From Clostridia bacterium (GTDB taxonomy: Bacteria > Bacillota > Clostridia > Oscillospirales > Acutalibacteraceae): a stretch of DNA of 64,000 bases. Below, in pieces: positions 3,877-62,283 of the stretch. How positions within the stretch are numbered: position 1 is the first letter of the stretch; the number at the start of each line of letters is the position of its first letter. Below the pieces are notes generated by a model that made no database searches, was not told the DNA's origin, and saw nothing but the letters and a program-made list of their open reading frames with translations. The translations under genes were made by a program, and so were the position numbers. The stretch covers positions 714 to 64,713 of the forward strand of contig JAWXUR010000003.1 of the NCBI GenBank assembly GCA_044426265.1. The letters run 5' to 3'.

Positions 3877-4178
3877 TGTGGACTTACGCATCATAGTTTG
3901 AAACTTAAAAATTTTTCAATTAGTTTTATATTAATGGGAAATTGAGGATTATAGGAAAAAATCCAAGATTTTTTTTAGATTTTAACCTTTTTTTTGCAAA
4001 GCAAAAATTACAATCGGAGTTCTAGCTCCCTTTTGAGGGAGATGTCAGCGAAGCTGACTGAGGGTTTGACCCTTAATTTTCCATTCTCAATTCTCAATTT
4101 TCCATTATTATTTTTTATTATTTTCTTAAGTTCCCAGCTATGGACTTACGCATTTGCCGAAGGCAAATTGTACCGCCC
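3877..4178. repeat. Mosaic hairpin-array repeat locus R1
   Basis: Chain of short perfect hairpins: TTTTTGC-AAA-GCAAAAA, GTCAGC-GAA-GCTGAC, AGGGT-TTG-ACCCT, TTTGCC-GAA-GGCAAA+TTGTACCGCC. Contains a 7-bp periodic tract at 4075..4109. The direct repeat TGGACTTACGCAT occurs at 3879..3891 and 4141..4153. Modules recur near 17670, 31004 and 51385. Confidence 0.8.
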
Positions 4179-6767: not shown

Positions 6768-6844
6768 CTTCTAAATTTTCTCCTTATATCCAAGTGGATT
6801 TTTGCTAATACGTTGATACTATCATTTTATAGTAGTGGTAATGG

Positions 6845-7103
6845 GTAGGGTTCGCTTTCGCTCACAATGAAAAATTAAGGTTTTTTCTTTTGTTTTATGG
6901 CTTGATTTATTAGTTAATCTCGTCTACGCTCGCCGTTAGTGTTTTGTGTCAACTAAAATATTACATATCTATCGGTTATTTTGCTTAAGTTGCTTGCATT
7001 GGAATTGTCCCTCGTTTATAATGTGTGCAACGCACGCCACCACAATTTTTCATTTTTCATTCTTAATTTTTCATTGTGAGCGATAGCGAACCTTAGCCGC
7101 TAC
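6845..7103. repeat. MITE-like element R2 bounded by 31-bp terminal inverted repeats
   Basis: Left arm 6849..6879 (GGTTCGCTTTCGCTCACAATGAAAAATTAAG) matches the reverse complement of right arm 7062..7092 at 30 of 31 positions. Outer ends are GTAG (6845) and CTAC (7103). Internal modules recur inverted at 17419..17500 and 42790..42900. Confidence 0.85.
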
Positions 7104-8474: not shown

Positions 8475-8512
8475 GGTCGTACCTTTTTGGCAAAGCCAAA
8501 AATTGTACCGCC
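8475..8512. repeat. GTAC-flanked T-run/A-run palindrome (family member 2)
   Basis: GGTCGTACC-TTTTTGGC-AAA-GCCAAAAA-TTGTACCGCC. Confidence 0.85.
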
Positions 8513-17418: not shown

Positions 17419-17745
17419 GGTACAGTTCGCTTCGCTCATAATGAAGAATTAAAAATGAAGAATGAAAAATTGTGGTGGCGTGCTTTGCACGCATTATAAA
17501 CGTAGGGGTGACCTGTGGTCGCCAGAAAATTTCATCAAACCTACTGGCGACCGCAGGTCGCCCCTACAATTTACCTATTGTAGGGACATGGCTTGCCATG
17601 TCCGCAAGTATAGTACAAACTCAGTTTCGGACATGGCAAGCCATGTCCCTACGTTGTGAGTGATGTTTTTTCCTTAAGTTCCCGAGTATGAGATGCGATT
17701 TTTCATTTTTCATTCTTCATTTTTCATTGCAAGCGCTAGCGAGCT
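17419..17745. repeat. Composite repeat R5: MITE-like frame carrying two REPIN-like doublets
   Basis: Outer arms (AGTTCGCTTCGCTCATAATGAAGAAT / ATTCTTCATTTTTCATTGCAAGCGCTAGCGAGCT) are imperfect inverted repeats with 7-bp periodic tracts. Inside are doublets at 17502..17567 and 17580..17652. About 210 bp recurs inverted at 51369..51600. The right end abuts the stop codon of the LicD-fusion gene. Confidence 0.88.
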
Positions 17746-19820: not shown

Positions 19821-20528
19821 ATGGTATATGCAGTTATTGCTGCTGGCGGAATTGGCAGCAGAATGGGAAACGTTGAAAAACCAAAGCAATTTTTAAAACT
19901 CAAAGGCAAACCTATCATCATGCACACAATCGAGAAATTTTATGTTAATTATAAAATTGAAAAAGTTATCGTTTTATGTCCTGAAAAATGGGTGAGCTAC
20001 ACTAAAGACATCATCGAAAAACATTTGCCTAAAAACGAGAAAATTGTTGTTTTATGCGGTGGTGACACTCGTAATGAAACTATCATGAATGCGATTAATT
20101 TCATCGAAGAAACAGATGGTTTAGCAGATGACACCATCATCTTAACTCATGATGCAGTGCGTCCATTTGTTAACGCAAGAATCATTGAAGAAAACATCGA
20201 TGCCGCTCTCAAATATGGTGCAACAGACACAGTAGTGCCTGCAACTGACACAATTGTTGAAAGCCAAGGTGGCGAAGTTATCAGCAATATTCCTGACAGA
20301 AGCAAGCTTTATCAAGGTCAAACTCCACAATCATTTAACGCAAAACTTCTCAAAGAGCTTTACACAAGCTTGAGCGATGAAGAAAAAGATATTTTAACTG
20401 ATGCTTGCAAAATTTTCAGCATCAAAGGGCATGACGTTCATCTTATCCAAGGCGAAGTTTACAACATCAAAATCACCTATCCATATGATTTAAGAGTTGC
20501 TGACTCCCTCCTTGACGACAATATGTAA
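19821..20528 (+). CDS. tarI: D-ribitol-5-phosphate cytidylyltransferase (IspD/TarI family)
   Basis: 235 aa. AAGGIGSRMGNVEKPKQFLKLKGKPIIMHTIEKF matches the TarI N-terminus. Confidence 0.88.
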   Translation: MVYAVIAAGGIGSRMGNVEKPKQFLKLKGKPIIMHTIEKFYVNYKIEKVIVLCPEKWVSYTKDIIEKHLPKNEKIVVLCGGDTRNETIMNAINFIEETDGLADDTIILTHDAVRPFVNARIIEENIDAALKYGATDTVVPATDTIVESQGGEVISNIPDRSKLYQGQTPQSFNAKLLKELYTSLSDEEKDILTDACKIFSIKGHDVHLIQGEVYNIKITYPYDLRVADSLLDDNM

Positions 20529-20540
20529 CCACTCATGTTC

Positions 20541-20628
20541 GGCGGTACAATTTTTGCGGTTAACCGCAAAAAGGTACGATCACCACGACATGAACTCCGT
20601 GATTGATTTGCTCAACGAGCAATCGAAA
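20541..20628. repeat. GTAC-flanked palindrome (member 3) plus two further hairpins
   Basis: GGCGGTACAA-TTTTTGCGG-TTAA-CCGCAAAAA-GGTACGA, then ATCAC...GTGAT and GATTTGCTC-AAC-GAGCAATC. Confidence 0.8.
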
Positions 20629-21847: not shown

Positions 21848-21934
21848 GCCGGTGTGATGGAATTGGCAGACGTAGTGGACTCAAAATCCACCGCTGGCGA
21901 CAGCGTGCCGGTTCGAGTCCGGCCACCGGCACCA
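21848..21934 (+). tRNA. tRNA-Leu (anticodon CAA), CCA encoded
   Basis: Hand-folded. Acceptor GCCGGTG/CACCGGC, 3-bp D stem, anticodon stem GTGGA/TCCAC with loop CTCAAAA. Long variable arm (GCTG-GCGA-CAGC) and T arm GCCGG-TTCGAGT-CCGGC. 87 nt. Confidence 0.9.
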
Positions 21935-30133: not shown

Positions 30134-30472
30134 TTAGCCTGCTGGCCATGTTAATTGTCTTCCACCCATGAGGTGAAAATGAATGTGTTTCACGCTTTGT
30201 CCGCCAAGTTCGCCGCAGTTGTTGACAACTCTATAGCCACCATCAAGACCGAGTTCTTTGCTAAGTTTTGCCACGACTTCGAAGCAGTGTGCAATAACAG
30301 CGCTGTTGGTTTCATCGATTTCGTCCGCACTTGCAATGTGTTCTTTTGGGATAATTAACACATGCGTTGGTGCTTGTGGTTCTAGGTCGTTGAATGCTAC
30401 TACTTTATCGTCTTCATAGATTTTTGTGGTTGGGATTTCTCCGTTTGCGATTTTGCAAAATATGCAATCCAT
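30134..30472 (-). CDS. HIT-family (histidine triad) nucleotide hydrolase
   Basis: 112 aa. CIFCKI... and the HIHFHLMGG triad. Confidence 0.9.
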   Translation of the reverse strand: MDCIFCKIANGEIPTTKIYEDDKVVAFNDLEPQAPTHVLIIPKEHIASADEIDETNSAVIAHCFEVVAKLSKELGLDGGYRVVNNCGELGGQSVKHIHFHLMGGRQLTWPAG

Positions 30473-30517
30473 TTTAGTTTTCCTCCTTGTTGAATTTATG
30501 TTTGTTTTGTTTTATTT

Positions 30518-31170
30518 GGTACAGTTTTTCTGTTATGCGTTTTTTATGGTACAGTTTTTGGCGGTAAACCGCAAAAAACGTGGTTTCGAGGGAGTGCGGT
30601 GGTTTTTGTTTCGTGAAATCACGAAACACGAATTTTTTCAGTTTCCATGGCATATGTATCGGTTAGTTTTTTTGTTTCTAGGTAGCTTTGATGTGTTGGG
30701 ACGTTTCGGCGAGCGTTTAATTTTGGCTTTGCCAAAATTATTGCGTGCCTTGCACGCAATTGCTGCGGCTTCGCCGCAGCAAAACGCTCGCCGAAACTGC
30801 ACCGCTAACTGACGATTACAATCCACAAAACAGTCGGCTGTCGCCGTCTGTTTTGCTAGTTTCATAAATCAAGCCGTAAAAATCGCTTTGCTCTTTTACT
30901 ACTAACGCAAATGCGATGTTATTTTCTCTTGGTTTGATTTGTAGGGTAATATAGTGCATTTAGTTTAGTTTTACGTTTATTTGAATCGCATTTGCTTTGC
31001 TTTAATTCTCAATTCTCAATTTTCAATTCTCCATTTTCTTGTGGTTTTCGCTCGTTGCGACGAGCGACTTAAGGCTCTGCCTTAAGAATCTGCAATTTTT
31101 CGTGAAAAATTGAGTAAAGCTTTGCTTGCTTTTTTTCTTTTTTCTTTTCTTTTTTTATTTTTTCTTTTTT
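30518..31170. repeat. Largest hairpin-array repeat locus R8 (~650 bp)
   Basis: GTAC palindrome (GGTACAG-TTTTTGGCGG-TAAA-CCGCAAAAAA), then GTTTCGTGA-AA-TCACGAAAC. A 16-bp outer stem encloses three hairpins at 30703..30797. Next come the AAAACAG..CTGTTTT hairpin, the CGCAAATGCGAT module, a 7-bp periodic tract (31004..31038), a partial hairpin chain (31046..31129) and a T/C tract (31130..31170) abutting the alaS stop. Confidence 0.88.
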
Positions 31171-33810
31171 TTAGCCTATCATTGTTTTGATAATCTCTGC
31201 CGCTTGCTCCAACGCCGCTGGAATCTTCGCAACATCCTTAGCTCCAGCCATAGCACTATCAGGTTTACCACCACCAGAACCACCAGCAAGCTGAGCAACT
31301 CCCTTAGCAATAAGTCCTGCCTTAGCACCTTTAGCAATAGCCTCTTTACCACAACAAACACCAATATTACCGCTACATTTTTCCTTTTGAACGCCGCCGA
31401 TAACACCAATATAATTTTCACCCTTATCACGAATCATGCTCATCATTTGGCGAATCTCATCAACTGTTGTATCTTCAAGCATAGTAGTAACAAGCATCAA
31501 ACCATCAATCTCAACAGCAGAATTTAACAGTGAACTAATTTTAATATTAGCAAGTTCAGTAGACTTTTTCTCGAGTTCTTTCTCTTTAAGTTTAAGAGTG
31601 TCAACAACAGCCTTAGTTTTCACAACAACGTCATTAACATTAGAAATCTTAAGCGCATCTGCAACTGAATTAATAACTCCCAATTTTTGGTTAACAAAGT
31701 TCAAGAAGTTTTTGCCTGTCACAGCCTCAATTCTTCTAACACCAGCTGCTACTGAACTCTCTGAAACGATTTTAAACAAACCAATTTCTCCAGCATTTGC
31801 AACGTGAGTACCGCCACAAAGTTCAACAGAAAAATCGCCAATTTTAACAACTCTTACAACGTCACCATATTTTTCGCCAAACAATGCCATTGCGCCCATT
31901 TCACGAGCTTTGTCGATAGGCATTTCCTCACTTTGTACGCTCAAAGCACCCAAGATGATTTCATTTACTCGAGTTTCAACCATTGCAATTTCCTCTGCTG
32001 TCATTGCAGAAAAATGCACGAAGTCAAAACGAGTGGTTTTTTCATCAACCAACTGACCAGCTTGCTCAACATGAGAGCCGAGAACTTCTCTAAGCGCTGC
32101 TTGCAAAAGGTGAGCTGCTGTGTGGTTTTTCTTAATATTTTGGTGTTTTTCGTCGTCCACTTTTGCGCTCACTTCATCGCCAACGCTCAAAATGTCACCG
32201 CTCACAAGCGAACCTGAATGCAAATAAATGCCGTCAGCTGTTTTTGTTGTACTATCAACCTTAAACACTGCTTTGTCAGTTTCGATTACACCGCTATCGC
32301 CCACTTGACCGCCACTAAGTGCATAAAATGGGGTTTTATCTAAGATGATAGTTGCTTTTTGCTCAGCTGTCACAAAGTCTTTTCTTTCATCGTCAGCCAC
32401 AACGGCTAAGATTTTTGCGTGAGCTGAAAGCTCACTGTACCCCAAGAAATCAGTTGAGTCAAGACCTTTTGTTGCTGTGCCTTTGTTTTTCCAAGCGTCA
32501 GCGCCAGCATCTTTTCGAGCGTTTCGAGTGCGCTCTCTGTTTTCTTTCACGATGCGTGCAAACTCTTCTTCGTCAACGCTCAAGCCTTTTTCTGCGAGGA
32601 TTTCTTTAGTTAAATCGATTGGGAAACCGAAAGTATCTTGAAGTTTGAATGCGTCTGCACCTGAAAGAATTTTGCCATCGAGATTTTCGATAACTTCACT
32701 CAAAAGGCGAAGCCCGTTATCAACTGTTTTTGCGAAACTTTCTTCTTCACTTTTGATGATTTTGATGATTAAATCTTTTTTCTCTAAGAGGTTAGGATAT
32801 GCGTTCTTGTTTTCCTCGATAACTGTTTCACACACTTTATAAAGGAAAGTTTCATTCACACCTAAGAGCTTACCATGACGAGCGGCACGACGAAGAAGGC
32901 GGCGAAGAACATAGCCACGACCCTCATTTGATGGAATAACACCATCGCTGATCATGAATGTCGTGCTGCGAATATGGTCGGTGATAACACGAAGTGAGAT
33001 GTCGTTTTTCTCATCGTCATGATAGTTAACTTTTGCGATATCGATAACGTGTTTCATGATTTTTTGAACTGTGTCAACTTCAAAAAGATTGTCGACACCT
33101 TGCATGATGCAAGCAAGTCTTTCAAGTCCCATACCTGTATCAATATTACAGTTTTTGAGGTGGTCATATTTACCTTTGCCATCACTTTCAAATTGAGTGA
33201 AAACTAAGTTCCAAAACTCTGTGTATCTGTCGCAGTCACAGCCTGGAGCACAGTCTGGTGAGCCGCAGCCGTACTTTTCGCCACGATCGAAGTGAAGTTC
33301 TGAACATGGTCCACAAGGGCCAGCACCGTGTTCCCAGAAGTTATCTTCTTTACCAAGACGTTTCATGCGATTTTCAGCCACACCGATGTGTTTTGTCCAC
33401 ATATCATAAGCTTCATCATCTTCAAGGTACACAGTAACCCAAATTTTATCGATTGGCATTTGCATAGTTTTTGTACAAAACTCCCATGCCCACTCGATAG
33501 CTTCTTTTTTGAAATAATCGCCAAAAGAGAAATTGCCGAGCATTTCGAAATATGTGCCGTGACGAGCGGTGATGCCCACACGTTCAATGTCAGGTGTACG
33601 GATACATTTTTGACAAGTTGTCATGCGATTTTTTGGCGGAGTAAGCTCTCCGGTGAAATATTTTTTTAAAGGCGCCATACCAGCGTTGATGAGTAGTAAG
33701 CTTTTATCTCCTTGTGGTACGAGTGAGAAGCTTTCTGCTTTGAGGTGGTCTTTGCTTTGAAAGAAGTTGAGGTATTGTTCACGGATTTCGTTTAGTGATG
33801 TCCATTGCAT
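31171..33810 (-). CDS. alaS: Alanine--tRNA ligase
   Basis: 879 aa. Class II core (RHGTYFEMLGNFSFGDYFK), editing-domain HxxxH (HTAAHLL) and a C-terminal DHHA1-like region. Confidence 0.96.
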   Translation of the reverse strand: MQWTSLNEIREQYLNFFQSKDHLKAESFSLVPQGDKSLLLINAGMAPLKKYFTGELTPPKNRMTTCQKCIRTPDIERVGITARHGTYFEMLGNFSFGDYFKKEAIEWAWEFCTKTMQMPIDKIWVTVYLEDDEAYDMWTKHIGVAENRMKRLGKEDNFWEHGAGPCGPCSELHFDRGEKYGCGSPDCAPGCDCDRYTEFWNLVFTQFESDGKGKYDHLKNCNIDTGMGLERLACIMQGVDNLFEVDTVQKIMKHVIDIAKVNYHDDEKNDISLRVITDHIRSTTFMISDGVIPSNEGRGYVLRRLLRRAARHGKLLGVNETFLYKVCETVIEENKNAYPNLLEKKDLIIKIIKSEEESFAKTVDNGLRLLSEVIENLDGKILSGADAFKLQDTFGFPIDLTKEILAEKGLSVDEEEFARIVKENRERTRNARKDAGADAWKNKGTATKGLDSTDFLGYSELSAHAKILAVVADDERKDFVTAEQKATIILDKTPFYALSGGQVGDSGVIETDKAVFKVDSTTKTADGIYLHSGSLVSGDILSVGDEVSAKVDDEKHQNIKKNHTAAHLLQAALREVLGSHVEQAGQLVDEKTTRFDFVHFSAMTAEEIAMVETRVNEIILGALSVQSEEMPIDKAREMGAMALFGEKYGDVVRVVKIGDFSVELCGGTHVANAGEIGLFKIVSESSVAAGVRRIEAVTGKNFLNFVNQKLGVINSVADALKISNVNDVVVKTKAVVDTLKLKEKELEKKSTELANIKISSLLNSAVEIDGLMLVTTMLEDTTVDEIRQMMSMIRDKGENYIGVIGGVQKEKCSGNIGVCCGKEAIAKGAKAGLIAKGVAQLAGGSGGGKPDSAMAGAKDVAKIPAALEQAAEIIKTMIG

Positions 33811-33887
33811 TATGTTTATTTCCTTTCGGTTTTTATTTTTGTTTTGTAATTAATAATGTTATAATTAATTGAGAAAAAATCATGTAA

Positions 33888-34086
33888 AATTTTACTCAAT
33901 TTTTTTAAAAAATTGCGGTTTCTTAAGGCAGAGCCTTAAGGCGCTCGCCGCAGCGAGCGAAATCTCCTATCGTCAAAAAAATCAGGAGGATAGACAAAAA
34001 TTTGTCCATTGGACAATTTTTTGTCGTAAGGAACCCTATTAAGGGGTTCCTTGATTTTGCCAAAGGCAAAACAATACAGATTTGCC
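33888..34086. repeat. Hairpin-chain element, full copy H1, inside the alaS 5' leader
   Basis: At least six consecutive stem-loops: CAATTTTT/AAAAATTG, CTTAAGGC-AGA-GCCTTAAG, CGCTCGC-CGCA-GCGAGCG, TTTGTCCA/TGGACAA, GGAACCC-TATTAA-GGGGTTCC and TTTTGCC-AAA-GGCAAAA. Collinear with 38392..38597 (inverted) and 40926..41290. Confidence 0.88.
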
Positions 34087-34181
34087 AATACAAAAAAACT
34101 ATAAATAAATATATTTTTGTTTGAATCGTTTTTTTGAAAATTGGTATTAGTGTATAGTTGATTTTCCTAAATCAAGACAAT

Positions 34182-34422
34182 AAAAAAAGCACTTTCCCAC
34201 AATCACAGGGTGAAAACTTGTGTTCCACGGTACCACCTGTGTTGTGCAAAAAGCACCACTCAATTTATCTTTAACGCAGATTTACGGCTAACTTTTCAAT
34301 TGCAACTTAGCTAGTAGCGCCTTAACACACAAACTTTAAAAATTCTTTCAGCCGTGGAATTTTCTCTCTTAAAAGCGAATGTTTTCGGTTCTAGCTTCTT
34401 TGTTTTTATTTTATTAAATTTA
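34182..34422 (-). promoter_or_regulatory. T-box leader (probable Ala specifier) controlling alaS
   Basis: On the minus strand: AGAGAG (GA motif), a candidate specifier GCU followed by a purine (ACGGCUGAAAG; plus-strand 34350..34352), stem III GTGC-TTTTT-GCAC and the T-box core GGTGGTACCGTGG (plus-strand 34225..34237). A weak terminator ends in U7 (plus-strand A run 34182..34188). Confidence 0.72.
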
Positions 34423-36196: not shown

Positions 36197-36239
36197 GGTC
36201 GTACTTTTTTTGCGGCTTGCCGCAAAAAACTGTACCGCC
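36197..36239. repeat. GTAC-flanked palindrome (member 5)
   Basis: GGTCGTAC-TTTTTTTGCGGC-TT-GCCGCAAAAAA-CTGTACCGCC, preceded by GTAGCT. Confidence 0.85.
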
Positions 36240-38290: not shown

Positions 38291-38391
38291 TGATTTTCTC
38301 CTTATCTTAATGTTTTCATATATTTTTTAATTGTAAATTACTACTTAATCTTGTGTACTAATTAGATTTAGCTTTTGTTTATAGTTTTTGC

Positions 38392-38597
38392 GTAGCGGTG
38401 AGATTGCTTTGTTTTGCCTTCGGCAAAATCAAGAAACCCCCGCCGAGGGTTTCTTACGCAAAAATGTCCACCGGACACTTTTGCTATCTTCCTGCGGTTT
38501 TTTGGCGATAAGGTATTTCGTTCGCTGCGGCGAACGCCCAAAGGCTCTGCCTTTGGAAACCGCAATTTTTCGAGAAAAATTGAGTAAAGCTTTGCTC
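38392..38597. repeat. Hairpin-chain element, full copy H2 (inverted relative to H1)
   Basis: Begins GTAGCGGTGAG. Same module order as H1 but with changed, still-complementary stems: CCAAAGGC-TCT-GCCTTTGG, AGAAACCC...GGGTTTCT and GTTCGC-TGCG-GCGAAC. Ends 24 nt from the stop of the lipid-kinase gene. Confidence 0.88.
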
Positions 38598-38620
38598 ATT
38601 ATATTGCTTTAAAATTCTTC

Positions 38621-40704: not shown

Positions 40705-40925
40705 AAATACCTGCTTTCTAAGTTTACATACTATTTTTAATTTCAAATTCAGCCAAGTTTATAAGTAGCTGATAAAATGATTTTAGGTTATAGGCACGCT
40801 CGATTGAACACACCTATAACCATTGTAACATTTTTATTCGGATTTTAAAAGTAGTTTAGCGTAAAAAGTTTGATTTATGCTTGACTTTTTTCAGTTTTTG
40901 CACAACCCAACAGAAAATTGAGAAA

Positions 40926-41290
40926 AAGCAAGCAAAACTTTACTCAATTTTTCACAAAAAATTGCGGATTCTAAAGGCAGAGCCTTTAGGCGCTCGCCGC
41001 AGCGAGCGAAACTCCCAATCGTCAAAAAAATCAGGAGGATAGGCAAAGTGTCCAGTGGACATTTTTTTGCGCAGTAGCTTGTAAATTTTAAAACTTTACA
41101 TAATTATCGAGAGATTTTTGTCTAAATCAAGGCGGAGGATTGAGCAATACTTTCGTATTGCGATTGACGACAACGCAGAGTTAGACTAAAATATACGATA
41201 AGTATGTGGAGTTTTAGGGTTTATAAGCTACTTTGGAACCCTATTAAGGGGTTCCTTGATTTTGCCGCTGGCAAAACAAAACAATCTTAC
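40926..41290. repeat. Hairpin-chain element, full copy H3, carrying a nested 158-bp hairpin insertion
   Basis: Collinear with H1 except for 41074..41231 (GTAGCTT...AAGCTAC), inserted between the TGTCCA/TGGACA and GGAACCC/GGGTTCC modules. Confidence 0.88.
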
Positions 41291-42459: not shown

Positions 42460-43262
42460 AAAGTTGGACGTAAGGAGCACCGCAGGTGCGGATATCCCAC
42501 TTTATAAAAGACTAAGGCAAAGAAGACAAAGAACAAAACAGTCGGGGTGTGCCAGATTTTTAGGCTGCAAGGCAGGCTAAAAATATTCCCCACCGACGGC
42601 GATAAAAATAAAATGTCCTAAATGCAGTGAGTTCCCCAAGAACGCATTTTGGTTACTTTTGTGCGAGCAAAAGTTACGCTGTGTTTTGTGTTAATTAAAA
42701 TGTTACAATAGCTATCGAGGTATTTTGTTTAAAACAAGGCGGAGGATTGAGCAATACTTTCGTATTGCGATTGACGACAACGAAGTTTTAAGCAAAATAA
42801 CCGATAGATATGTAATATTTTAGTTGACACAAAACACTAACGGCGAGCGTAGACGAGGCTTTCTTATAAATCAAGCTATAAAACAATAAGATTAATTTCT
42901 TTATATTACCTAATATTCGTTTACAGGTCACCAAAATAGCCAGCTGTCGCTGTCTGTTTTGGTTATGCCCATAAATCAGTCCGTAAAAAATCGCTTTGCT
43001 CTTTTTACTACTAACGCAAATGCGATATCGTTTTTCCTTTACATTGCTGTTTAGGTTACGATACCGCATTTAGTTAAATTGTTCTATTTTTTTTCGCATT
43101 TGCTTTTTTCATTTTTAAGTTTTTTATTTGTTTTGAAATTGCTGGGGATTTCGCTTGCTGCTGCAAGCGCCTTAAGGCTCTGCCTTAAGAATCCGCAATT
43201 TTTCGTGAAAAATTGAGTAAAGCTTTGCTTGCTTTTTTCTTTTTCTTTTTATTTTTTCTTAT
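42460..43262. repeat. Hairpin-array repeat locus R14 (~800 bp)
   Basis: Contains GCACC-GCA-GGTGC and a TTTTTAGGCTGC/GCAGGCTAAAAA hairpin. Carries the 48-nt core (42735..42782) on its own stem, modules inverted relative to 6890..6990, the CGCAAATGCGAT module, a partial hairpin chain (43148..43232) and a T/C tract (43233..43262) abutting a gene stop. Confidence 0.82.
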
Positions 43263-49934: not shown

Positions 49935-49977
49935 GGCGTACTTTTTTTGGCGGTTAACCGCCAAAAAACTGTACCCC
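49935..49977. repeat. GTAC-flanked palindrome (member 6) between convergent genes
   Basis: GGCGTAC-TTTTTTTGGCGG-TTAA-CCGCCAAAAAA-CTGTACCCC. Confidence 0.85.
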
Positions 49978-51368: not shown

Positions 51369-51965
51369 GCGTAGGGGTTGACCTCATAGCTGGGAACTTA
51401 AATGAAAAACCATCAATCACAACGTAGGGACATGGCTTGCCATGTCAGAAACTTGGTTTGTGCTATACTTGCGGACATGGCAAGCCATGTCCCTACAATA
51501 GGAAAATTGTAGGGGCGACCTGTGGTCGCCAGTAGGTTTGATGAAATTTTCTGGCGACCTCAGGTCGCCCCTACACTAACAAATAAATTTTTCAAATCTC
51601 TTAAGTTACTGGCAATAAAATCGCCCACTACGTTTTTAAAGGAATTTCATAAAGCAATCCGTAAAAAATCGCTTTGCTCTTTTTACTACTAACGCAAATG
51701 CGATATCGTTTTTTCCTTTAGATTGCTCTTTAGGAAACGATACCGCATTTAGTTAGTTTGTTTTATTTTTTTATCGCATTTGCTTGTTGCTAATTTTCAA
51801 TTTTCAATTCTCAATTTTCAATTTTCTTGGGGTGTTTCGCTTGCTGCTGCAAGCGACTTAAGGCTCTGCCTTAAGAATCTGCAATTTTTCGTGAAAAATT
51901 GAGTAAAGCTTTGCTTGCTTTTTTCTTTTTTATTTTTATTTTTTATTTTTCTTTTTATTCTTTAC
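51369..51965. repeat. Composite repeat R16
   Basis: REPIN-like doublets at 51424..51496 and 51509..51574, inverted relative to 17502..17652. Also the CGCAAATGCGAT module (51655..51765), a 7-bp periodic tract (51792..51826), a partial hairpin chain (51835..51918) and a T/C tract (51919..51965) abutting a gene stop. Confidence 0.88.
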
Positions 51966-51977
51966 CTATTCTTCTAA

Positions 51978-52424
51978 TTATTCAGCTGAAAAAATCCCCT
52001 CAACAGCATCAACAATCATATCTTTAAGATAATTAAGACCATATTTGATAAGACCAACCCAAATGTTTGATTCATGATCAACATTTTCATTCGAAGTAAC
52101 ATAAGTTATTTCGCCATCTTCTTCAAATATTTCCATTGTGCAAGTGAATGAACAGTTGATTTCTTGTTTAACTGTAACTGTGTAAGTGCCGTCACCATTG
52201 TCATCATAAATAGTGTCTAACAAGTCGTAACAACAGCTCATGTCTAAGCCTTCAACCCTATAGATATAATATTTGGCATACACTCTAATTTCACTATCAA
52301 GTGTTGAAAGTTGAGTTGTTGTGAGATCGTCCATTGAAACTGCGGTTGAAGTTGCAGTTGCTGGAATAACGAGTGAGAACATCATGATTGCAGCGAGTGC
52401 AAATGAGATTAATTTTTTAGTCAT
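51978..52424 (-). CDS. Small secreted Cys-containing protein, unknown family (cassette copy 1)
   Basis: 148 aa from ATG 52424 (RBS GAAGGAGG; the track TTG start is unlikely). Has a signal peptide (MTKKLISFALAAIMMFSLVIPATA), four Cys and a DDNGDG loop. Confidence 0.72.
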   Translation of the reverse strand: MTKKLISFALAAIMMFSLVIPATATSTAVSMDDLTTTQLSTLDSEIRVYAKYYIYRVEGLDMSCCYDLLDTIYDDNGDGTYTVTVKQEINCSFTCTMEIFEEDGEITYVTSNENVDHESNIWVGLIKYGLNYLKDMIVDAVEGIFSAE

Positions 52425-52444
52425 TTTTCTTTCCTCCTTCAAAC

Positions 52445-54181
52445 TTAAGCGTCAAAATCGATGCCGTCAAAATCATCTGTGTATGTCCAAGTAACATCGC
52501 TAACGAAATATCTGTCAAACACACTTTGAATGTTGTCAAGAGCAAGTTCGTTATCTTCACGAGGCATTACGTAGAAGTTTTCAACTGTGATTCCGTCAAC
52601 ATAGCGGCAGTATAAGCCGTAAACTGGGATATCGTACATAAGAGAATCTTCATAGTTACCCATACCCATATAGAAAATCTTTGTGATTTCTGGATAAACT
52701 TCTGCTGCAGATTGTGCGAAGATGCATTCTAAAACACCTGGAAGATCGAGGTCACTTGTAACACCTTCTCTGTATTTCACAACAAAGTTTTTGATTGTTA
52801 CGTCAGTTACATAGTGAATTTCAGAGAAGTCTGTTAAGCCGTTTGTGCAGCCAACTACTGCGCTTGCCATGTAAACATTGTTAGCTTCGATATTTTCGAT
52901 AACAACGTTTGAGAGGCTGCCAACAGTTTCTGTGCTGTAACTCATTCTATAACCGAGCCAGATAAGAAGTGGAGATAAAATGCCGTCCATTTGAATGTCA
53001 TGAACATAAACGTCTTCAAGGTTAGAGCCATCAACGCTTTCTATAGCTATACCAGCGTAACCACCAGCTGTTCCAGCTTTGAAGAATTGACAGTCATAAA
53101 CTTCAATGTTGCCGATTCCTGTTGCTGTAGGTGTACCGATTTTGAAACAGTTCGCATTTGATATGATTTCACAGTTATAAAATTCATAGTTGTAACAACC
53201 GCCATCATCATATGATTTAATGCTCATGCCGTCATCTGCTGCTGAAATAAAGCAGTCATGCATAACAACGTTGTTGCAGTCTAAGTAGTCAACGCCGTCA
53301 CCATTTTCAGTGTGTAAGTTATTATTTAAGATAGTATATTCAACTAAAATGTTATCTGTTTCTTCAATCCACATAACGAACCCGCCAGAGTTATAAAGCT
53401 CAATGTTTTCAATAGTTAAGCCATCAACATTGCTAGTTCTAATGAGTTGAACTCTTGAGCCAGTTTTATATGTGATATATTCTCTCCAAGCTAAGTTATA
53501 TTCTTTAAGATTGAAGCTTGTTATGTCTGAAGCTAAAAGTGATAAGCCATCACCAGCGTAAGATTCATTCATGTAAGTTTGACCTTGACCATCGATAGTA
53601 CCAGGGCCTTCGATAGTTACATTATCACAGTTATAAACTTTGATAACAGCAGATGATAAACCACTACTTCCATCCACTTCACTGTTAAGCAACATTTGAT
53701 CATAATCAATGCATTGAAGTGTTGTATTAGTACCAACTTTTAAAGTAACATTTGATTGCATAACGATTGTTACGATTTCGAATGTTGTTTCAGCGCCATA
53801 GTTTGAAATGTACACTGTACCGCCACCAGCTGCGTTTGCTACAGTGATAGCTTCATTGATAGCTGCTGCATTTTCTTTACCTGTGTTGTTTTCTGAAAGA
53901 TCATAACCATCAGCCACAACGTCGATGAATGTATAACCGATAGCCGCTGCCTCTGCTTTAGCTTCTGCTTTTTCATCAGCATAGCTCTCAGCGTAAGTGA
54001 GATAATCATCATAAGGGATATTATCCACATAACCACCAGTTACTGTGTAGTCAGTCGTGTACATATCATCAAAGATTGATTCATCAACAGCTGCGCTGCT
54101 TGTTGTGAAAATTCCAAGTGATGATGTGGTTGTCATTACAACAACTAAAATGAGTTTGATAACGTTTTGAAATGTTTGCAT
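52445..54181 (-). CDS. Secreted right-handed beta-helix protein, GH28/pectate-lyase-3-like glycosidase (cassette copy 1)
   Basis: 578 aa with a signal peptide. N-terminal cap pattern NTGKENAAAINEAITVANAAGGGTVY and GH28-like acidic motifs ENGDGVD and AADDGMSIKS. Confidence 0.78.
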   Translation of the reverse strand: MQTFQNVIKLILVVVMTTTSSLGIFTTSSAAVDESIFDDMYTTDYTVTGGYVDNIPYDDYLTYAESYADEKAEAKAEAAAIGYTFIDVVADGYDLSENNTGKENAAAINEAITVANAAGGGTVYISNYGAETTFEIVTIVMQSNVTLKVGTNTTLQCIDYDQMLLNSEVDGSSGLSSAVIKVYNCDNVTIEGPGTIDGQGQTYMNESYAGDGLSLLASDITSFNLKEYNLAWREYITYKTGSRVQLIRTSNVDGLTIENIELYNSGGFVMWIEETDNILVEYTILNNNLHTENGDGVDYLDCNNVVMHDCFISAADDGMSIKSYDDGGCYNYEFYNCEIISNANCFKIGTPTATGIGNIEVYDCQFFKAGTAGGYAGIAIESVDGSNLEDVYVHDIQMDGILSPLLIWLGYRMSYSTETVGSLSNVVIENIEANNVYMASAVVGCTNGLTDFSEIHYVTDVTIKNFVVKYREGVTSDLDLPGVLECIFAQSAAEVYPEITKIFYMGMGNYEDSLMYDIPVYGLYCRYVDGITVENFYVMPREDNELALDNIQSVFDRYFVSDVTWTYTDDFDGIDFDA

Positions 54182-54445: not shown

Positions 54446-54892
54446 TTATTCAGCTGAGAAAATTCCCTCAACAGCGTCAACAATCATATCTTTAACCATG
54501 TTTAAGCCGTACTTGATAAGTGCAATCCAAATGTTTGATTCGTGATCTACTTCGTAATCAGAAGTAACATAAGTGATTTCACCATCTTCTTCAAAAAGTT
54601 CAAGAGTACAAGTGTAAGTACAGTTGATTTCTTGTTTGATAGTTACTGTGTAAGTGCCGTCACCATTGTCGTCATAGATAGTGTCTAACAAGTCATAACA
54701 GCAGCTCATGTCTAAGCCTTCAACTCTATAAATATAATATTTTGCTTCTGCAACAAGTGCGGTGTTAATTGATGTAAGAGTTGCTGCGTCAACATCGTCC
54801 ATTGAAATTGTTGTTTGTGCTGCAGTTGCTGGAATAACTAGTGAGAACATCATGATTGCAGCGAGTGCAAATGAGATTAATTTTTTAGTCAT
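54446..54892 (-). CDS. Small secreted Cys-containing protein, unknown family (cassette copy 2)
   Basis: Paralog of 51978..52424 with an identical signal peptide. ATG 54892 follows GAAGGAGG. Confidence 0.72.
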   Translation of the reverse strand: MTKKLISFALAAIMMFSLVIPATAAQTTISMDDVDAATLTSINTALVAEAKYYIYRVEGLDMSCCYDLLDTIYDDNGDGTYTVTIKQEINCTYTCTLELFEEDGEITYVTSDYEVDHESNIWIALIKYGLNMVKDMIVDAVEGIFSAE

Positions 54893-54912
54893 TTTTCTTT
54901 CCTCCTTCAAAC

Positions 54913-56649
54913 TTAAGCGTCAAAATCGATGCCGTCAAAATCATCTGTGTATGTCCAACTTACATCGCTAACGAAATATCTATCAAATACGTTTTGGATA
55001 TTGTCAAGAGGAAGTTCGTTATCTTCACGAGGCATTACATAGAAGTTTTCAACTGTGATTCCGTCAACATAGCGGCAATATAAGCCGTAAACTGGAATAT
55101 CATACATGAGAGCATCTTCATAGTTACCCATACCCATATAGAAAATCTTGGTAATTTCTGGATATACGTCTGGTGCAGATTGAGCGAAGATACATTCTAA
55201 AACACCTGGAAGTGTTGGATCACTTGTTACGCCCTCTCTATATTTCACAACGAAGTTTCTAATTGTTACGTCAGTTACATAGTGAATTTCTGAGAAGTCT
55301 GTTAAGCCGTTTGTGCAGCCTACTACTGCGCTTGCTAAGTCAACGTTATTAGCTTCGATATTTTCGATAACAACATTTGTTAAGCTACCAACTGTTTCTG
55401 TGCTGTAGCTCATTCTATAGCCGAGCCAGATAAGAAGTGGAGATAAGATGCCGTCCATTTGAATGTCATGAACATAAACATCTTCAAGGTTAGAGCCATC
55501 AACACTTTCAATTGCTATACCAGCGTAACCGCCCATTGTGCCGCCTTTGAAGAATTGGCAATCATAAACTTCAATGTTTCCAATTCCAGTTGCTGTAGGT
55601 GTACCGATTTTAAAGCAGTTAGCATATGAAATGATTTCGCAGTTATAAAATTCATAATTATAGCAGCCGCCATTATCATATGATTTAATACTCATGCCGT
55701 CATCAGCAGCTGAAATAAAGCAGTCATGCATAACAACATTATTGCAGTCTAAGTAGTCAACACCATCACCATTTTCAGTGTGTAAGTTATTATTTAAGAT
55801 AGTGTATTCAACTAAAATGTTATCTGTTTCTTCAATCCACATAACGAAGTTAGCTGCGTTATAAAGATCGATGTTTTCAATTGTTAAGCCGTCAACATTG
55901 CTAGTTCTAATGAGTTGAACTCTTGAACCTGTGTGGTAACAAATATATTGACGCCAAGCTAAGTTGTATTCTTTAAGATTGAATGTTGTTACGTCTGAAG
56001 CTAAGAGTGATAAGCCATCGCCCATGTAAGAATCATTCATGTAAGTTGTGCCTTGACCATCGATTGTTCCAGGGCCTTCAAGTTTAACATTGTCGCAGTT
56101 ATAAATCTTAATAACTCCGCCTGATAAGCCAGAGCTACCATAAAGTTCGTTATTTGCGAGCATTTGATCATAATCAATGCATTGAAGTGTTGTGTTCATA
56201 CCAACTTTTAAAATAACATTTGATTGCATAACGATTGTTACGATTTCATATGTTGTTTCAGCACCATAGTTTGAAACGTACACAGTACCGCCGCCAGCTG
56301 CGTTTGCTGCTGTGATAGCTAAGTTGATAGCTGCTGCATTTTCTATGCCAGTGTTGTCAACTGCAATGTCATAACCTTCAGCAACAACGTCGATGAAAGT
56401 ATAGCCGATAGCCGCTGCCTCTGCTTTAGCTTCTGCTTTTTCATCAGCATAGCTGTCTGCGTATGTTAAATAATCATCATAAGGAATTTCATTAACATAA
56501 CCACCAGTTACTGTGTAATCAGATGTGTACATATCATCAAAGATTGATTCATCAACAGCTGCGCTGCTTGAAGTGAAAATCCCCAGTGATGATGTGGTTG
56601 TTATCACAACAACCAAAATGAGTTTGATAACGTTTTGAAATGTTTGCAT
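54913..56649 (-). CDS. Secreted right-handed beta-helix protein, GH28/pectate-lyase-3-like glycosidase (cassette copy 2)
   Basis: 578 aa, collinear with 52445..54181 without indels. Roughly nine residues in ten are identical by eye. Confidence 0.78.
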   Translation of the reverse strand: MQTFQNVIKLILVVVITTTSSLGIFTSSSAAVDESIFDDMYTSDYTVTGGYVNEIPYDDYLTYADSYADEKAEAKAEAAAIGYTFIDVVAEGYDIAVDNTGIENAAAINLAITAANAAGGGTVYVSNYGAETTYEIVTIVMQSNVILKVGMNTTLQCIDYDQMLANNELYGSSGLSGGVIKIYNCDNVKLEGPGTIDGQGTTYMNDSYMGDGLSLLASDVTTFNLKEYNLAWRQYICYHTGSRVQLIRTSNVDGLTIENIDLYNAANFVMWIEETDNILVEYTILNNNLHTENGDGVDYLDCNNVVMHDCFISAADDGMSIKSYDNGGCYNYEFYNCEIISYANCFKIGTPTATGIGNIEVYDCQFFKGGTMGGYAGIAIESVDGSNLEDVYVHDIQMDGILSPLLIWLGYRMSYSTETVGSLTNVVIENIEANNVDLASAVVGCTNGLTDFSEIHYVTDVTIRNFVVKYREGVTSDPTLPGVLECIFAQSAPDVYPEITKIFYMGMGNYEDALMYDIPVYGLYCRYVDGITVENFYVMPREDNELPLDNIQNVFDRYFVSDVSWTYTDDFDGIDFDA

Positions 56650-56898: not shown

Positions 56899-56939
56899 GG
56901 GGTCTCATCTTTTTTTCGCTTGCGAAAAAACTGTACGGC
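56899..56939. repeat. GTAC-flanked palindrome (member 7, degenerate left flank)
   Basis: GGGGTCTCATC-TTTTTTTCGC-TT-GCGAAAAAA-CTGTACGGC. Confidence 0.75.
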
Positions 56940-58541: not shown

Positions 58542-58586
58542 TTTTAGTACTTTTTTTGCGGTTAACCGCAAAAAACTGTACTAAAA
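58542..58586. repeat. GTAC-flanked palindrome (member 8, nearly perfect 45-bp palindrome)
   Basis: TTTTAGTAC-TTTTTTTGCGG-TTAA-CCGCAAAAAA-CTGTACTAAAA. Confidence 0.88.
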
Positions 58587-62242: not shown

Positions 62243-62283
62243 GGTGCGTACCTTTTTCGGCAAAGCCGAAAAATTGTACAGCC
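62243..62283. repeat. GTAC-flanked palindrome (member 9) between convergent genes
   Basis: GGTGCGTACC-TTTTTCGGC-AAA-GCCGAAAAA-TTGTACAGCC. Confidence 0.85.

Follow-up and report, generated by a model that had tools for sequence, protein, structure and literature searches.

A strand-symmetric nested palindrome in the repeat mosaic between alaS and a HIT-family gene of an uncultured Oscillospirales bacterium

In the 64,000-nucleotide stretch of genomic DNA analysed here and called the window below (contig JAWXUR010000003.1, assembly GCA_044426265.1), alaS and a HIT-family gene lie one after the other on the minus strand, separated by a long spacer block in which a 95-nt element is found approximately 375 nt downstream of the alaS stop (Table 1). 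According to its AlaS protein the host is a gut or rumen member of Oscillospirales, near Acutalibacteraceae MAGs, and the best species-representative genome is only 69% identical. The locus is core chromosome, and no transposase, RAYT, recombinase, phage or plasmid genes were found among the approximately 40 ORFs of at least 100 aa in the window that were scanned against Pfam. GC skew does not shift at this place, for which reason a replication-terminus or dif-like role was rejected, and the cumulative GC skew falls, which suggests the minus strand as the leading-strand sequence. An earlier note, made from the letters alone, had correctly placed the element between the alaS stop and the HIT start in an intergenic block; the block does exist, but its limits are 30473-31170 and not 30518-31170. 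The description of the block as made almost entirely of hairpins does not hold, as approximately eight hairpin elements cover about one third of it and the remainder consists of A/T-rich spacer and heptamer repeats.

Table 1. Positions of genes, hairpins and repeats in the window (a dot marks features listed without a strand)
Feature	Position	Strand	Remarks
alaS	31171-33810	-	
HIT-family gene	30134-30472	-	then phosphoribosyltransferase, ComEC
alaS-HIT spacer block	30473-31170	-	698 nt; lineage-specific mosaic insertion
T-run/GC-stem/A-run palindrome	30554-30579	.	short dispersed family, others at 20551, 49943, 58552; copy here within 30541-30581
Perfect 10-bp hairpin TGTTTCGTGA-AA-TCACGAAACA	30607-30628	.	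same-species short-read contigs all end inside it, at 30624
Outer stem, 5' arm GTTTCGGCGAGCGTTT	30703-30718	.	16/16 Watson-Crick with 30782-30797
Hairpin 1 AATTTTGGC-TTT-GCCAAAATT	30719-30739	.	9 bp, triloop; AT-rich arm
Hairpin 2 ATTGCGTGC-CTT-GCACGCAAT	30740-30760	.	9 bp, triloop
Hairpin 3 TGCTGCGGC-TTC-GCCGCAGCA	30761-30781	.	9 bp, triloop; minus-strand loop C-GAA-G
Outer stem, 3' arm AAACGCTCGCCGAAAC	30782-30797	.	pairs with 30703-30718
13-bp hairpin, one mismatch	30826-30855	.	left end of R-long-A; in copy 42932, missing from copy 51645
R-core: three abutting perfect hairpins TCGCTCGT / CTTAAGGC / CAATTTTTC and T-rich tail	31040-31130	+	conserved core of R families
R-core, other plus-strand copies	43143-43233, 51829-51919, 38510-38600	+	
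R-core, minus-strand copies	40927-41017, 33879-33968	-	
R-long-A	30826-31170 (+), 42932 to ~43271, 51645-51956		~345 nt, three copies; first 77-84% identical to others
R-long-B	33867-34109, 38374-38596, 40916-41069		
MITE-like families	6838-7103, 17433-17735, 42681-42837		27-42-nt inverted repeats
GTAG-headed REPIN-type nested palindromes	17502-17692, 51383-51575		GTAG/CTAC heads

The element (30703-30797) consists of a 16-bp outer stem around three abutting 21-nt palindromes, each of 9 bp with a 3-nt loop. Altogether it has 43 Watson-Crick pairs, no G-U pair and nine unpaired bases, all of which belong to the loops, so that 86 of the 95 nt are paired and the junction has no unpaired base at all. 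The sequence layout reads as it had been written in the earlier note, and the four uninterrupted helices described there are the RNAfold MFE structure of both strands, a four-helix junction of -64.9 kcal/mol; the three hairpins with 3-nt loops were also seen correctly, but the “aa” and “tt” that had been left unpaired do pair, which gives arms of 9 bp. The RNAfold z is -10.5 and -10.9 on the two strands, with none of 200 dinucleotide shuffles as stable, and with DNA parameters the element gives -48.6 kcal/mol and z -11.5. Its four-helix fold is retained in 181-nt and 698-nt context, and, the three arms being mutually unrelated in sequence, there is essentially a single fold. GC content is approximately 51% in the element versus approximately 37% in the background, in agreement with the earlier remark on GC-rich stems in an AT-rich genome, and the flanks read ...TTGGGAC and TGCACCG....

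Two side observations concern the arms: hairpin 1 has a 17-nt core which is the same as that of a palindrome in terminator position at 8485-8501, and hairpin 2 bears a faint likeness, 94% over 16 nt and without significance, to the GCGTGC-TTT-GCACGC hairpin at 17478-17493 in repeat family M3. Hairpins 1 and 3 agree at only 8 of 21 positions, and an inverted duplication of 46 nt with hairpin 2 at its centre was therefore rejected.

A custom scan for outer stems of at least 8 bp that enclose at least two perfect hairpins was run over 1.17 Mb (the window and 100 fetched loci), and its sole match was the 95-nt element. The nested structure is real and far beyond chance. Its strand symmetry, that is, 43 pairs with no G-U among them and the same MFE on both strands, argues for an origin at the DNA level, and the remark of the earlier note that perfect stems and triloops would fit a DNA structure is well taken.

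The same note had called the fold cloverleaf-like; a conserved functional RNA of this kind is not supported. ARAGORN found only a tRNA-Leu at 21848, Rfam at gathering thresholds gave only tRNA-Leu, and Rfam at E <=10 over 30400-31250 returned three chance-level matches, none of them relevant. A new class of functional structured RNA, such as a four-way-junction small RNA or a cis-regulatory element, would be in keeping with so stable and unambiguous a fold (z about -10.5), but we regard it as decidedly unlikely: the element is conserved in no relative and carries no promoter or terminator signature, its strand symmetry favours the DNA level, and a structure with no G-U pairs, bulges or internal loops and with nearly all its bases paired is atypical of natural functional RNAs and presents no obvious surface to a ligand or a protein.

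The gene order itself is widespread. HIT follows alaS in 59 of 80 relatives, the gap being <=35 nt in 34 of these 59 and <=209 nt in 53 of them. The closest protein match is one sister species with AlaS 89% identical, after which identity drops to 73%; the contig of this sister species runs from alaS into HIT over a gap of 79 nt that holds a single imperfect hairpin, and in relatives at genus level the two genes stand 62 and 285 nt apart, versus 698 nt here. No part of the 698-nt block was found by blastn in 100 loci, and the outer stem, which occurs nowhere else in the window even if 3 mismatches are allowed, is absent from the loci of 80 relatives. Since the gap is so short in most of the relatives that were compared, amounts to 79 nt in the sister and none of the fetched loci contains a piece of the block, the block as a whole, and the 95-nt element with it, was acquired in the lineage of this species, and the mosaic split an ancestrally tight alaS-HIT junction. 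The earlier note had named absence from relatives and a non-conserved outer stem as what would speak against it, and this is largely what we see, the whole block being absent in the sister species and in all of the 80+ relatives. Its observation is thus confirmed and its functional interpretation only partly supported.

What other assemblies of this species confirm of the block is its edges alone. An identical HIT protein is encoded on nine Logan short-read contigs; eight of them were retrieved for alignment, and every one of these ends at 30624, while a single Logan contig with identical AlaS ends at 31123 and 33898; in this way 30473-30624 (152 nt) and 31123-31170 (48 nt) are confirmed at 100% identity, and 30625-31122, thus also the 95-nt element, is seen in this one assembly only. 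Such contigs extend approximately 30 nt (k-1, with k = 31) into shared sequence, a rule that was checked at two edges: the far end of the 8719-nt HIT contig is approximately 29 nt inside tRNA-Leu, and the contig end at 33898 is 30 nt inside the R-long-B boundary (33867-33869). From the contig stop at 30624 and this rule we infer a probable start near 30595 for a repeat that extends toward the element and has another copy outside the window. It would be possible to take the same contig ends (the HIT contigs that stop at 30624 and the alaS contig that stops at 31123), together with ORF-based look-ups across the region that gave nothing, as signs of an assembly artefact absent from the real chromosome. 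We hold this to be highly improbable. Both edges of the block are identical in independent samples, where alaS and HIT are never directly joined, and therefore an insertion exists; contig breaks are ordinarily explained by k = 31 repeats, and a nested palindrome that is non-repetitive and has three different arms is not something an assembler makes up.

When the spacers of the window were compared among themselves, they proved to be a mosaic of dispersed repeats of at least five families. R-core is a unit of approximately 90 nt with six copies in the window, which its covariance model scores at 99-114 bits; over the six copies 96% of cells are paired and seven pairs carry compensatory double changes. 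Nine double-sided cells versus two one-sided G-U-type cells were counted among the R-core substitutions, and the stems of the repeat families in this genome therefore evolve by double changes that preserve Watson-Crick pairing, with almost no G-U intermediates. A 47-aa ORF of R-long-A was rejected as a gene, as it has indels and stops in the other two copies. The window contains 40 perfect hairpins of at least 8 bp versus 8.6 +/- 2.5 in shuffles, 33 of the 40 fall in its non-coding 18%, and their density is approximately three times the median of the relatives' loci. The 1.17 Mb contain nine arrays in which at least three perfect hairpins abut, all of them in this window: six R-cores, two REPIN clusters and the 95-nt element; eight of the nine are multicopy. 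According to this analysis the other recognisable pieces of the alaS-HIT mosaic are copies of dispersed repeats, and arrays of abutting perfect palindromes of approximately 20 nt are the signature of these families in the genome.

The 95-nt element is the top non-member match of the R-core covariance model, with 15.3 bits (E ~0.06) on the minus strand, versus the range of the members given above, and 14.9 bits on the plus strand. In the minus-strand alignment its arms follow in the order GC-rich, intermediate and AT-rich. Both have three abutting perfect palindromes of approximately 20 nt with unrelated sequences, and their AT-rich arms have AATTTT/AAAATT in common; R-core, however, has a T-rich tail and no closing stem, while the element has a closing stem and no tail. 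The likeness is one of common architecture, and homology is not demonstrated. Homology of the outer stem to R-core hairpin A (TTTCG...GCGAGCG) or to the M2 repeat (TAACGGCGAGCG) was rejected, there being just 7-12-mer coincidences which are not significant. Within the 64-kb window the element has no second copy, and blastn and nhmmer comparison of 30582-30825 with the rest of the window gave nothing significant (nhmmer E > 1). Its edges show no target-site duplication, as the flanks hold no direct repeat, and no GTAG or CGTC tag stands beside any of its four helices.

R-long-A has TTAC at its left junction. In the copy at 30826-31170 about 8-28 nt separate this end from the element, and the other R-long-A copies have a different palindromic module 15-70 nt from the same end, namely the M2 inverted repeat and a GTAG-REPIN cluster. 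Palindromic modules thus stand beside all three left ends (8-70 nt), which points to insertion next to palindromes, or to hot-spots of nesting.

A further insertion is found upstream of alaS. Its T-box leader (34203-34409, minus strand, 73.6 bits, E 6e-16, under the Rfam gathering score) ends 392 nt before the alaS start, versus 52-69 nt in the loci of four relatives (L001, L098, L099, L100), and an R-long-B copy in sense orientation fills this interval. As this R element lies in the leader of an essential gene and in its sense orientation, it must be read through in transcription. The sister species' contig starts inside the R-core of the alaS leader, so that the leader insertion is older than the block downstream of alaS.

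These arrays bear on the suggestion that selection fixed the 95-nt element as a transcriptional insulator or an RNA-stability element, which would terminate or pause alaS read-through or protect the alaS 3' end and in this way set the alaS:HIT expression ratio; such a function, and not selfish spread, would then account for its presence. This role looks unlikely to us, although the element does sit where an operon junction once was, in a sense-transcribed spacer, and no sigma-70-like promoter and no promoter-like site for HIT was found between the two genes. REP/BIME elements stabilise RNA, and these stabilisers would be a precedent. Clusters of adjacent hairpins downstream of a stop, with no U-tract required, have been proposed as intrinsic terminators in one report (PMC8355165), which puts them within 80 nt of the stop; the 95-nt element is some 375 nt away from the alaS stop and is enclosed by an outer stem, and any termination at it is putative. 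As an intrinsic terminator in the usual sense, a GC-rich hairpin with a U-tract near the stop, it does not qualify: no T-run or U-tract follows it on either strand, and on the plus strand a terminator scan of 30300-31300 flagged only the hairpin at 30607-30628. Also, the sister species gets by with its one imperfect hairpin, and the R-family arrays in the alaS leader are evidently non-terminating.

The perfect Watson-Crick stems and the stability of the DNA-parameter fold would suit a further alternative, a functional site in ssDNA or cruciform form, such as a structure for primosome assembly, one resembling a single-strand origin, or one recognised by a recombinase or HUH enzyme. The minus strand, suggested as the leading-strand sequence, presents a C-GAA-G loop, which is the very stable DNA mini-hairpin motif, and the GTAG-headed REPIN-like elements of the window suggest a RAYT-type HUH enzyme in the genome. 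This alternative is nevertheless very unlikely, as the neighbours are housekeeping genes with no plasmid, phage or mobile-element genes nearby, the element has neither a GTAG nor a CGTC tag, and with an interior of 63 nt it is unlikely to be extruded as a cruciform from duplex DNA. Phage blastn with the element gave no match, viral contig scans with three patterns gave nothing, and blastn against a plasmid collection returned nothing beyond two E. coli records, matched over 51 nt at chance level (E 0.2). Single-strand-origin or oriT-type DNA of a plasmid or phage was rejected on this lack of similarity and on the neighbours (alaS, HIT, phosphoribosyltransferase, ComEC), and an invertible switch (inverton) was rejected likewise, as there is no promoter-like site, no recombinase among the scanned ORFs, and the interior is fully self-paired.

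Seven JGI metagenome matches to the outer-stem pattern were rejected as homologues: they come from an unrelated soil-type organism of 55-57% GC and carry a long REPIN-like hairpin (TTTGGAGTG-CGGCGAGCGTTTTTTGCGCGCCGC...) that has only a chance 12-mer in common with the outer stem. A coding role of the block was also rejected. Pfam gave its ORFs no more than one match below threshold, over 21 residues, to a family of cysteine-rich peptides, and of the two ORFs that cross the element, one of 75 aa on the minus strand and a partial one of 71 aa on the plus strand, expected at a contig edge, neither protein is on record.

Among known systems the element works most like REP/BIME/REPIN elements or MITEs, and of the criteria that could be run on it only terminal inverted repeats were found. 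REP are repetitive extragenic palindromes, with families tagged by GTAG or CGTC (PMC3733652), and BIME are mosaic clusters of them; REPINs belong here too (PMC3116915). The likeness consists in short GC-rich intergenic palindromic units clustered in mosaics, in stems kept by paired changes, in tolerance within operons with an ability to act as RNA barriers, and in the presence of true GTAG-headed REPIN-like pairs in the same window (17502-17692, 51383-51575). Unlike them, the element has no tag, was seen in one copy and has no RAYT among the scanned window ORFs; its three units are unrelated and not alternating copies of one unit, and they abut without a spacer and are closed by a perfect 16-bp outer stem. 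With MITEs (for example Correia/NEMIS, or the modular BOX of Streptococcus pneumoniae) it shares a size of approximately 100 nt, an intergenic site, perfect 16-bp terminal inverted repeats (30703-30718/30782-30797) and a predicted stable RNA fold if co-transcribed, and further MITE-like families, with inverted repeats of 42 nt and 38 nt, are clearly present in the genome (6838-7103 and 17433-17735). In contrast to MITEs, it lacks a target-site duplication, a second copy in the 64 kb and a known cognate transposase, and its interior is entirely self-paired, which is untypical of them. Repetitive hairpin-forming elements of sponge mtDNA (PMC2800124) and palindromic repeats of Volvox (PMC2670323) are GC-rich hairpin-forming selfish DNA too, and there as well clusters of GC-rich palindromes invade and inflate the spacers of an AT-rich genome; the present host, however, is bacterial, and one copy of the element was seen in the window. 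The closed four-way arrangement is an unusual feature among hairpin-forming intergenic repeat DNA.

From our analysis and the comparisons above we propose that the 95-nt element is, on balance probably, a DNA-level nested palindrome, a piece of REP/BIME/MITE-like selfish hairpin-array DNA in the intergenic spacers of this species. Three things suggest the selfish-repeat origin: the symmetry of its pairing, which is Watson-Crick throughout, its position within a mosaic of repeats, and the genome's repertoire of hairpin-array repeats. The element may have arrived or been assembled by hairpin-dependent ssDNA transposition, or by insertion targeted beside palindromes, as with REP/REPIN, IS200/IS605-type and REP-targeting IS elements. 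Its perfect pairing would then be kept by recency and by hairpin-templated correction on ssDNA and not by selection for an RNA function. With no sigma-70-like promoter seen between alaS and HIT, co-transcription of the element as part of their spacer is probable, and in RNA a four-way junction of -65 kcal/mol might be a barrier to 3'-to-5' exonucleases and partly uncouple HIT from alaS, as intercistronic REP/BIME do; by this analogy an RNA-barrier role is conceivable.

What counts against a selfish origin is that the window has one copy only, that significant similarity to the repeat families is lacking, and that neither a target-site duplication nor, among the scanned ORFs, a transposase was found. 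Furthermore, the exact geometry, three arms of 9 bp and 3 nt with a 16-bp closing stem, is hard to obtain by haphazard nested insertion and looks more like a constrained unit, and this very regularity keeps the insulator, the structured RNA and the ssDNA site in play as alternatives to a selfish repeat. One may even suggest, quite speculatively and with little expectation of its being so, that the element is one member of an undescribed class of closed hairpin arrays in uncultured Oscillospirales, of which R-core and R-long would be the open forms; such arrays, built as modules from perfect palindromes of approximately 20 nt that abut, would be mobilised as ssDNA, their multi-way junctions would serve a dedicated enzyme or act as RNA roadblocks, and the geometry would be functional.

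The single locus in itself, where an insertion without conservation separates two housekeeping genes, matters little. It is of value as a pointer to a rich and undescribed set of hairpin-array repeats in an uncultured lineage of gut Clostridia, notable for a triple-hairpin core with compensatory evolution, for GTAG-headed REPIN-like clusters in a Firmicute, and for insertions that enter the T-box leader of an essential tRNA synthetase gene and flank it on the 3' side. With these repeats spacers grow from approximately 20 to 700 nt and short-read assemblies break at places that can be predicted, which bears on the spread of palindromic selfish DNA outside Proteobacteria, on its tolerance by essential operons and on the quality of MAGs. 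The repeat landscape merits a separate genome-wide look, and if the closed four-way geometry proves to be recurrent, it would be a new structural type of bacterial repeat.

Spacers of the window are populated by a dispersed repeat of about 90 nt, the R-core, built of three abutting perfect hairpins with a T-rich tail and present in six copies within the 64-kb window. Among these six copies, compensatory double changes were found at seven base pairs and G-U pairs are nearly absent; no Rfam family matched the repeat. A truncated R-core also opens the contig of the sister species (L097).

Repeats and other features of the window
Feature	Strand	Positions
R-core	+	31040-31130, 43143-43233, 51829-51919, 38510-38600
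R-core	-	40927-41017, 33879-33968
R-long-B copy at alaS	-	33867-34109
alaS T-box leader	-	34203-34409
TTAC ahead of R-long-A		30813-30822, 42920-42930, 51617-51625
Tandem heptamers		31002-31038, 4072-4106, 51791-51828
GTAG/CTAC-headed clusters		17502-17692, 51383-51575
MITE-like elements		6838-7103, 17433-17735, 42681-42891, 41088-41207
MITE-like module, first		6886-6988, 42788-42891
MITE-like module, second		7009-7091, 17425-17507
Direct repeat upstream of HIT		30509-30559
T-run/GC-stem/A-run palindromes		20551-20572, 36206-36229, 49943-49968, 56911-56930, 58552-58575, 62253-62273, 8484-8502
Duplicated two-gene unit		51978-54181, 54446-56649

In the longer form R-long-A, all three copies share one orientation and a conserved TTAC about 10 nt ahead of the first hairpin, an arrangement that may recall the target and end organisation of IS200/IS605-type (IS608-like) elements. 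Short arrays of four to five tandem heptamers, TTCTCAA or TTTTCAA, lie within R-long-A and in one other spacer; in R-long-A an alternative fold is possible, in which the heptamers at 31015-31023 base-pair with 31106-31114 in the 3' arm of R-core hairpin C.

Short-read Logan contigs (L081-L089, k = 31) of the same species stop at 30624, 31123 and 33898, terminating about 30 nt into each repeat, and assemblies from short reads therefore systematically lack the spacers of this species. That the contigs break at 30624 implies that a further, unseen copy of a repeat begins near 30595. Nearby, immediately upstream of the HIT ribosome-binding site, stands a direct repeat, GTTTTATTTGGTACAGTTTTT / GTTTTTTATGGTACAGTTTTT, with 30-nt spacing, which could be an operator or promoter element and is missing in the sister species.

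Other families accompany the R-core. Two copies, inverted relative to each other and 92% identical, of a nested-palindrome cluster with GTAG/CTAC heads (for instance GTAGGGGCGACCTGTGGTCGCCAG ... CTGGCGACCTCAGGTCGCCCCTAC) represent a REPIN-like architecture in a Firmicute; no gene for the REPIN-associated transposase RAYT occurs within the 64-kb window. MITE-like elements carry terminal inverted repeats of 27-42 nt, and different loci have modules in common (93% identity for the first, 90% for the second). Unlike bidirectional terminators, with their canonical order of A-run, stem and T-run, the gene-end palindromes have the reverse order of T-run, GC stem and A-run, the runs lengthening the stem; several resemble one another across 30-40 nt. 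The window also holds a tandem duplication of a two-gene unit, comprising a 154 aa gene and one for a 578-aa GH28-like protein, the two GH28-like copies being 90% identical.

In a more distant relative (GCA_965355925.1; 48% GC, AlaS 72% identical) an intergenic array at 20473-20626 of its locus L098 consists of five hairpins side by side, all perfect or nearly so and unrelated to one another in sequence (201 nt, -127 kcal/mol, z -12.4), and hairpin arrays therefore exist also outside the window species. A dispersed long-hairpin repeat of about 100 nt, TTTGGAGTGCGGCGAGCGTTTTTTGCGCGCCGCTTT...loop...AAAGCGGCGCGCAAAAAACGCTCGCCGCACTCCAAA, with at least seven copies and variable loops, came up by chance, via a common 12-mer, in JGI metagenome contigs of an unrelated organism (L090-L096, 55-57% GC).

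Inverted R-core copies lie on both sides of alaS, both T-rich tails pointing toward it. The gene has a T-box leader (73.6 bits, under the Rfam gathering score of 93), and the distance from it to the start codon is 392 nt in the window versus 52-69 nt in relatives. A copy of the longer form R-long-B is inserted between the leader and the start codon, so that the 5' UTR of an essential gene contains a repeat.
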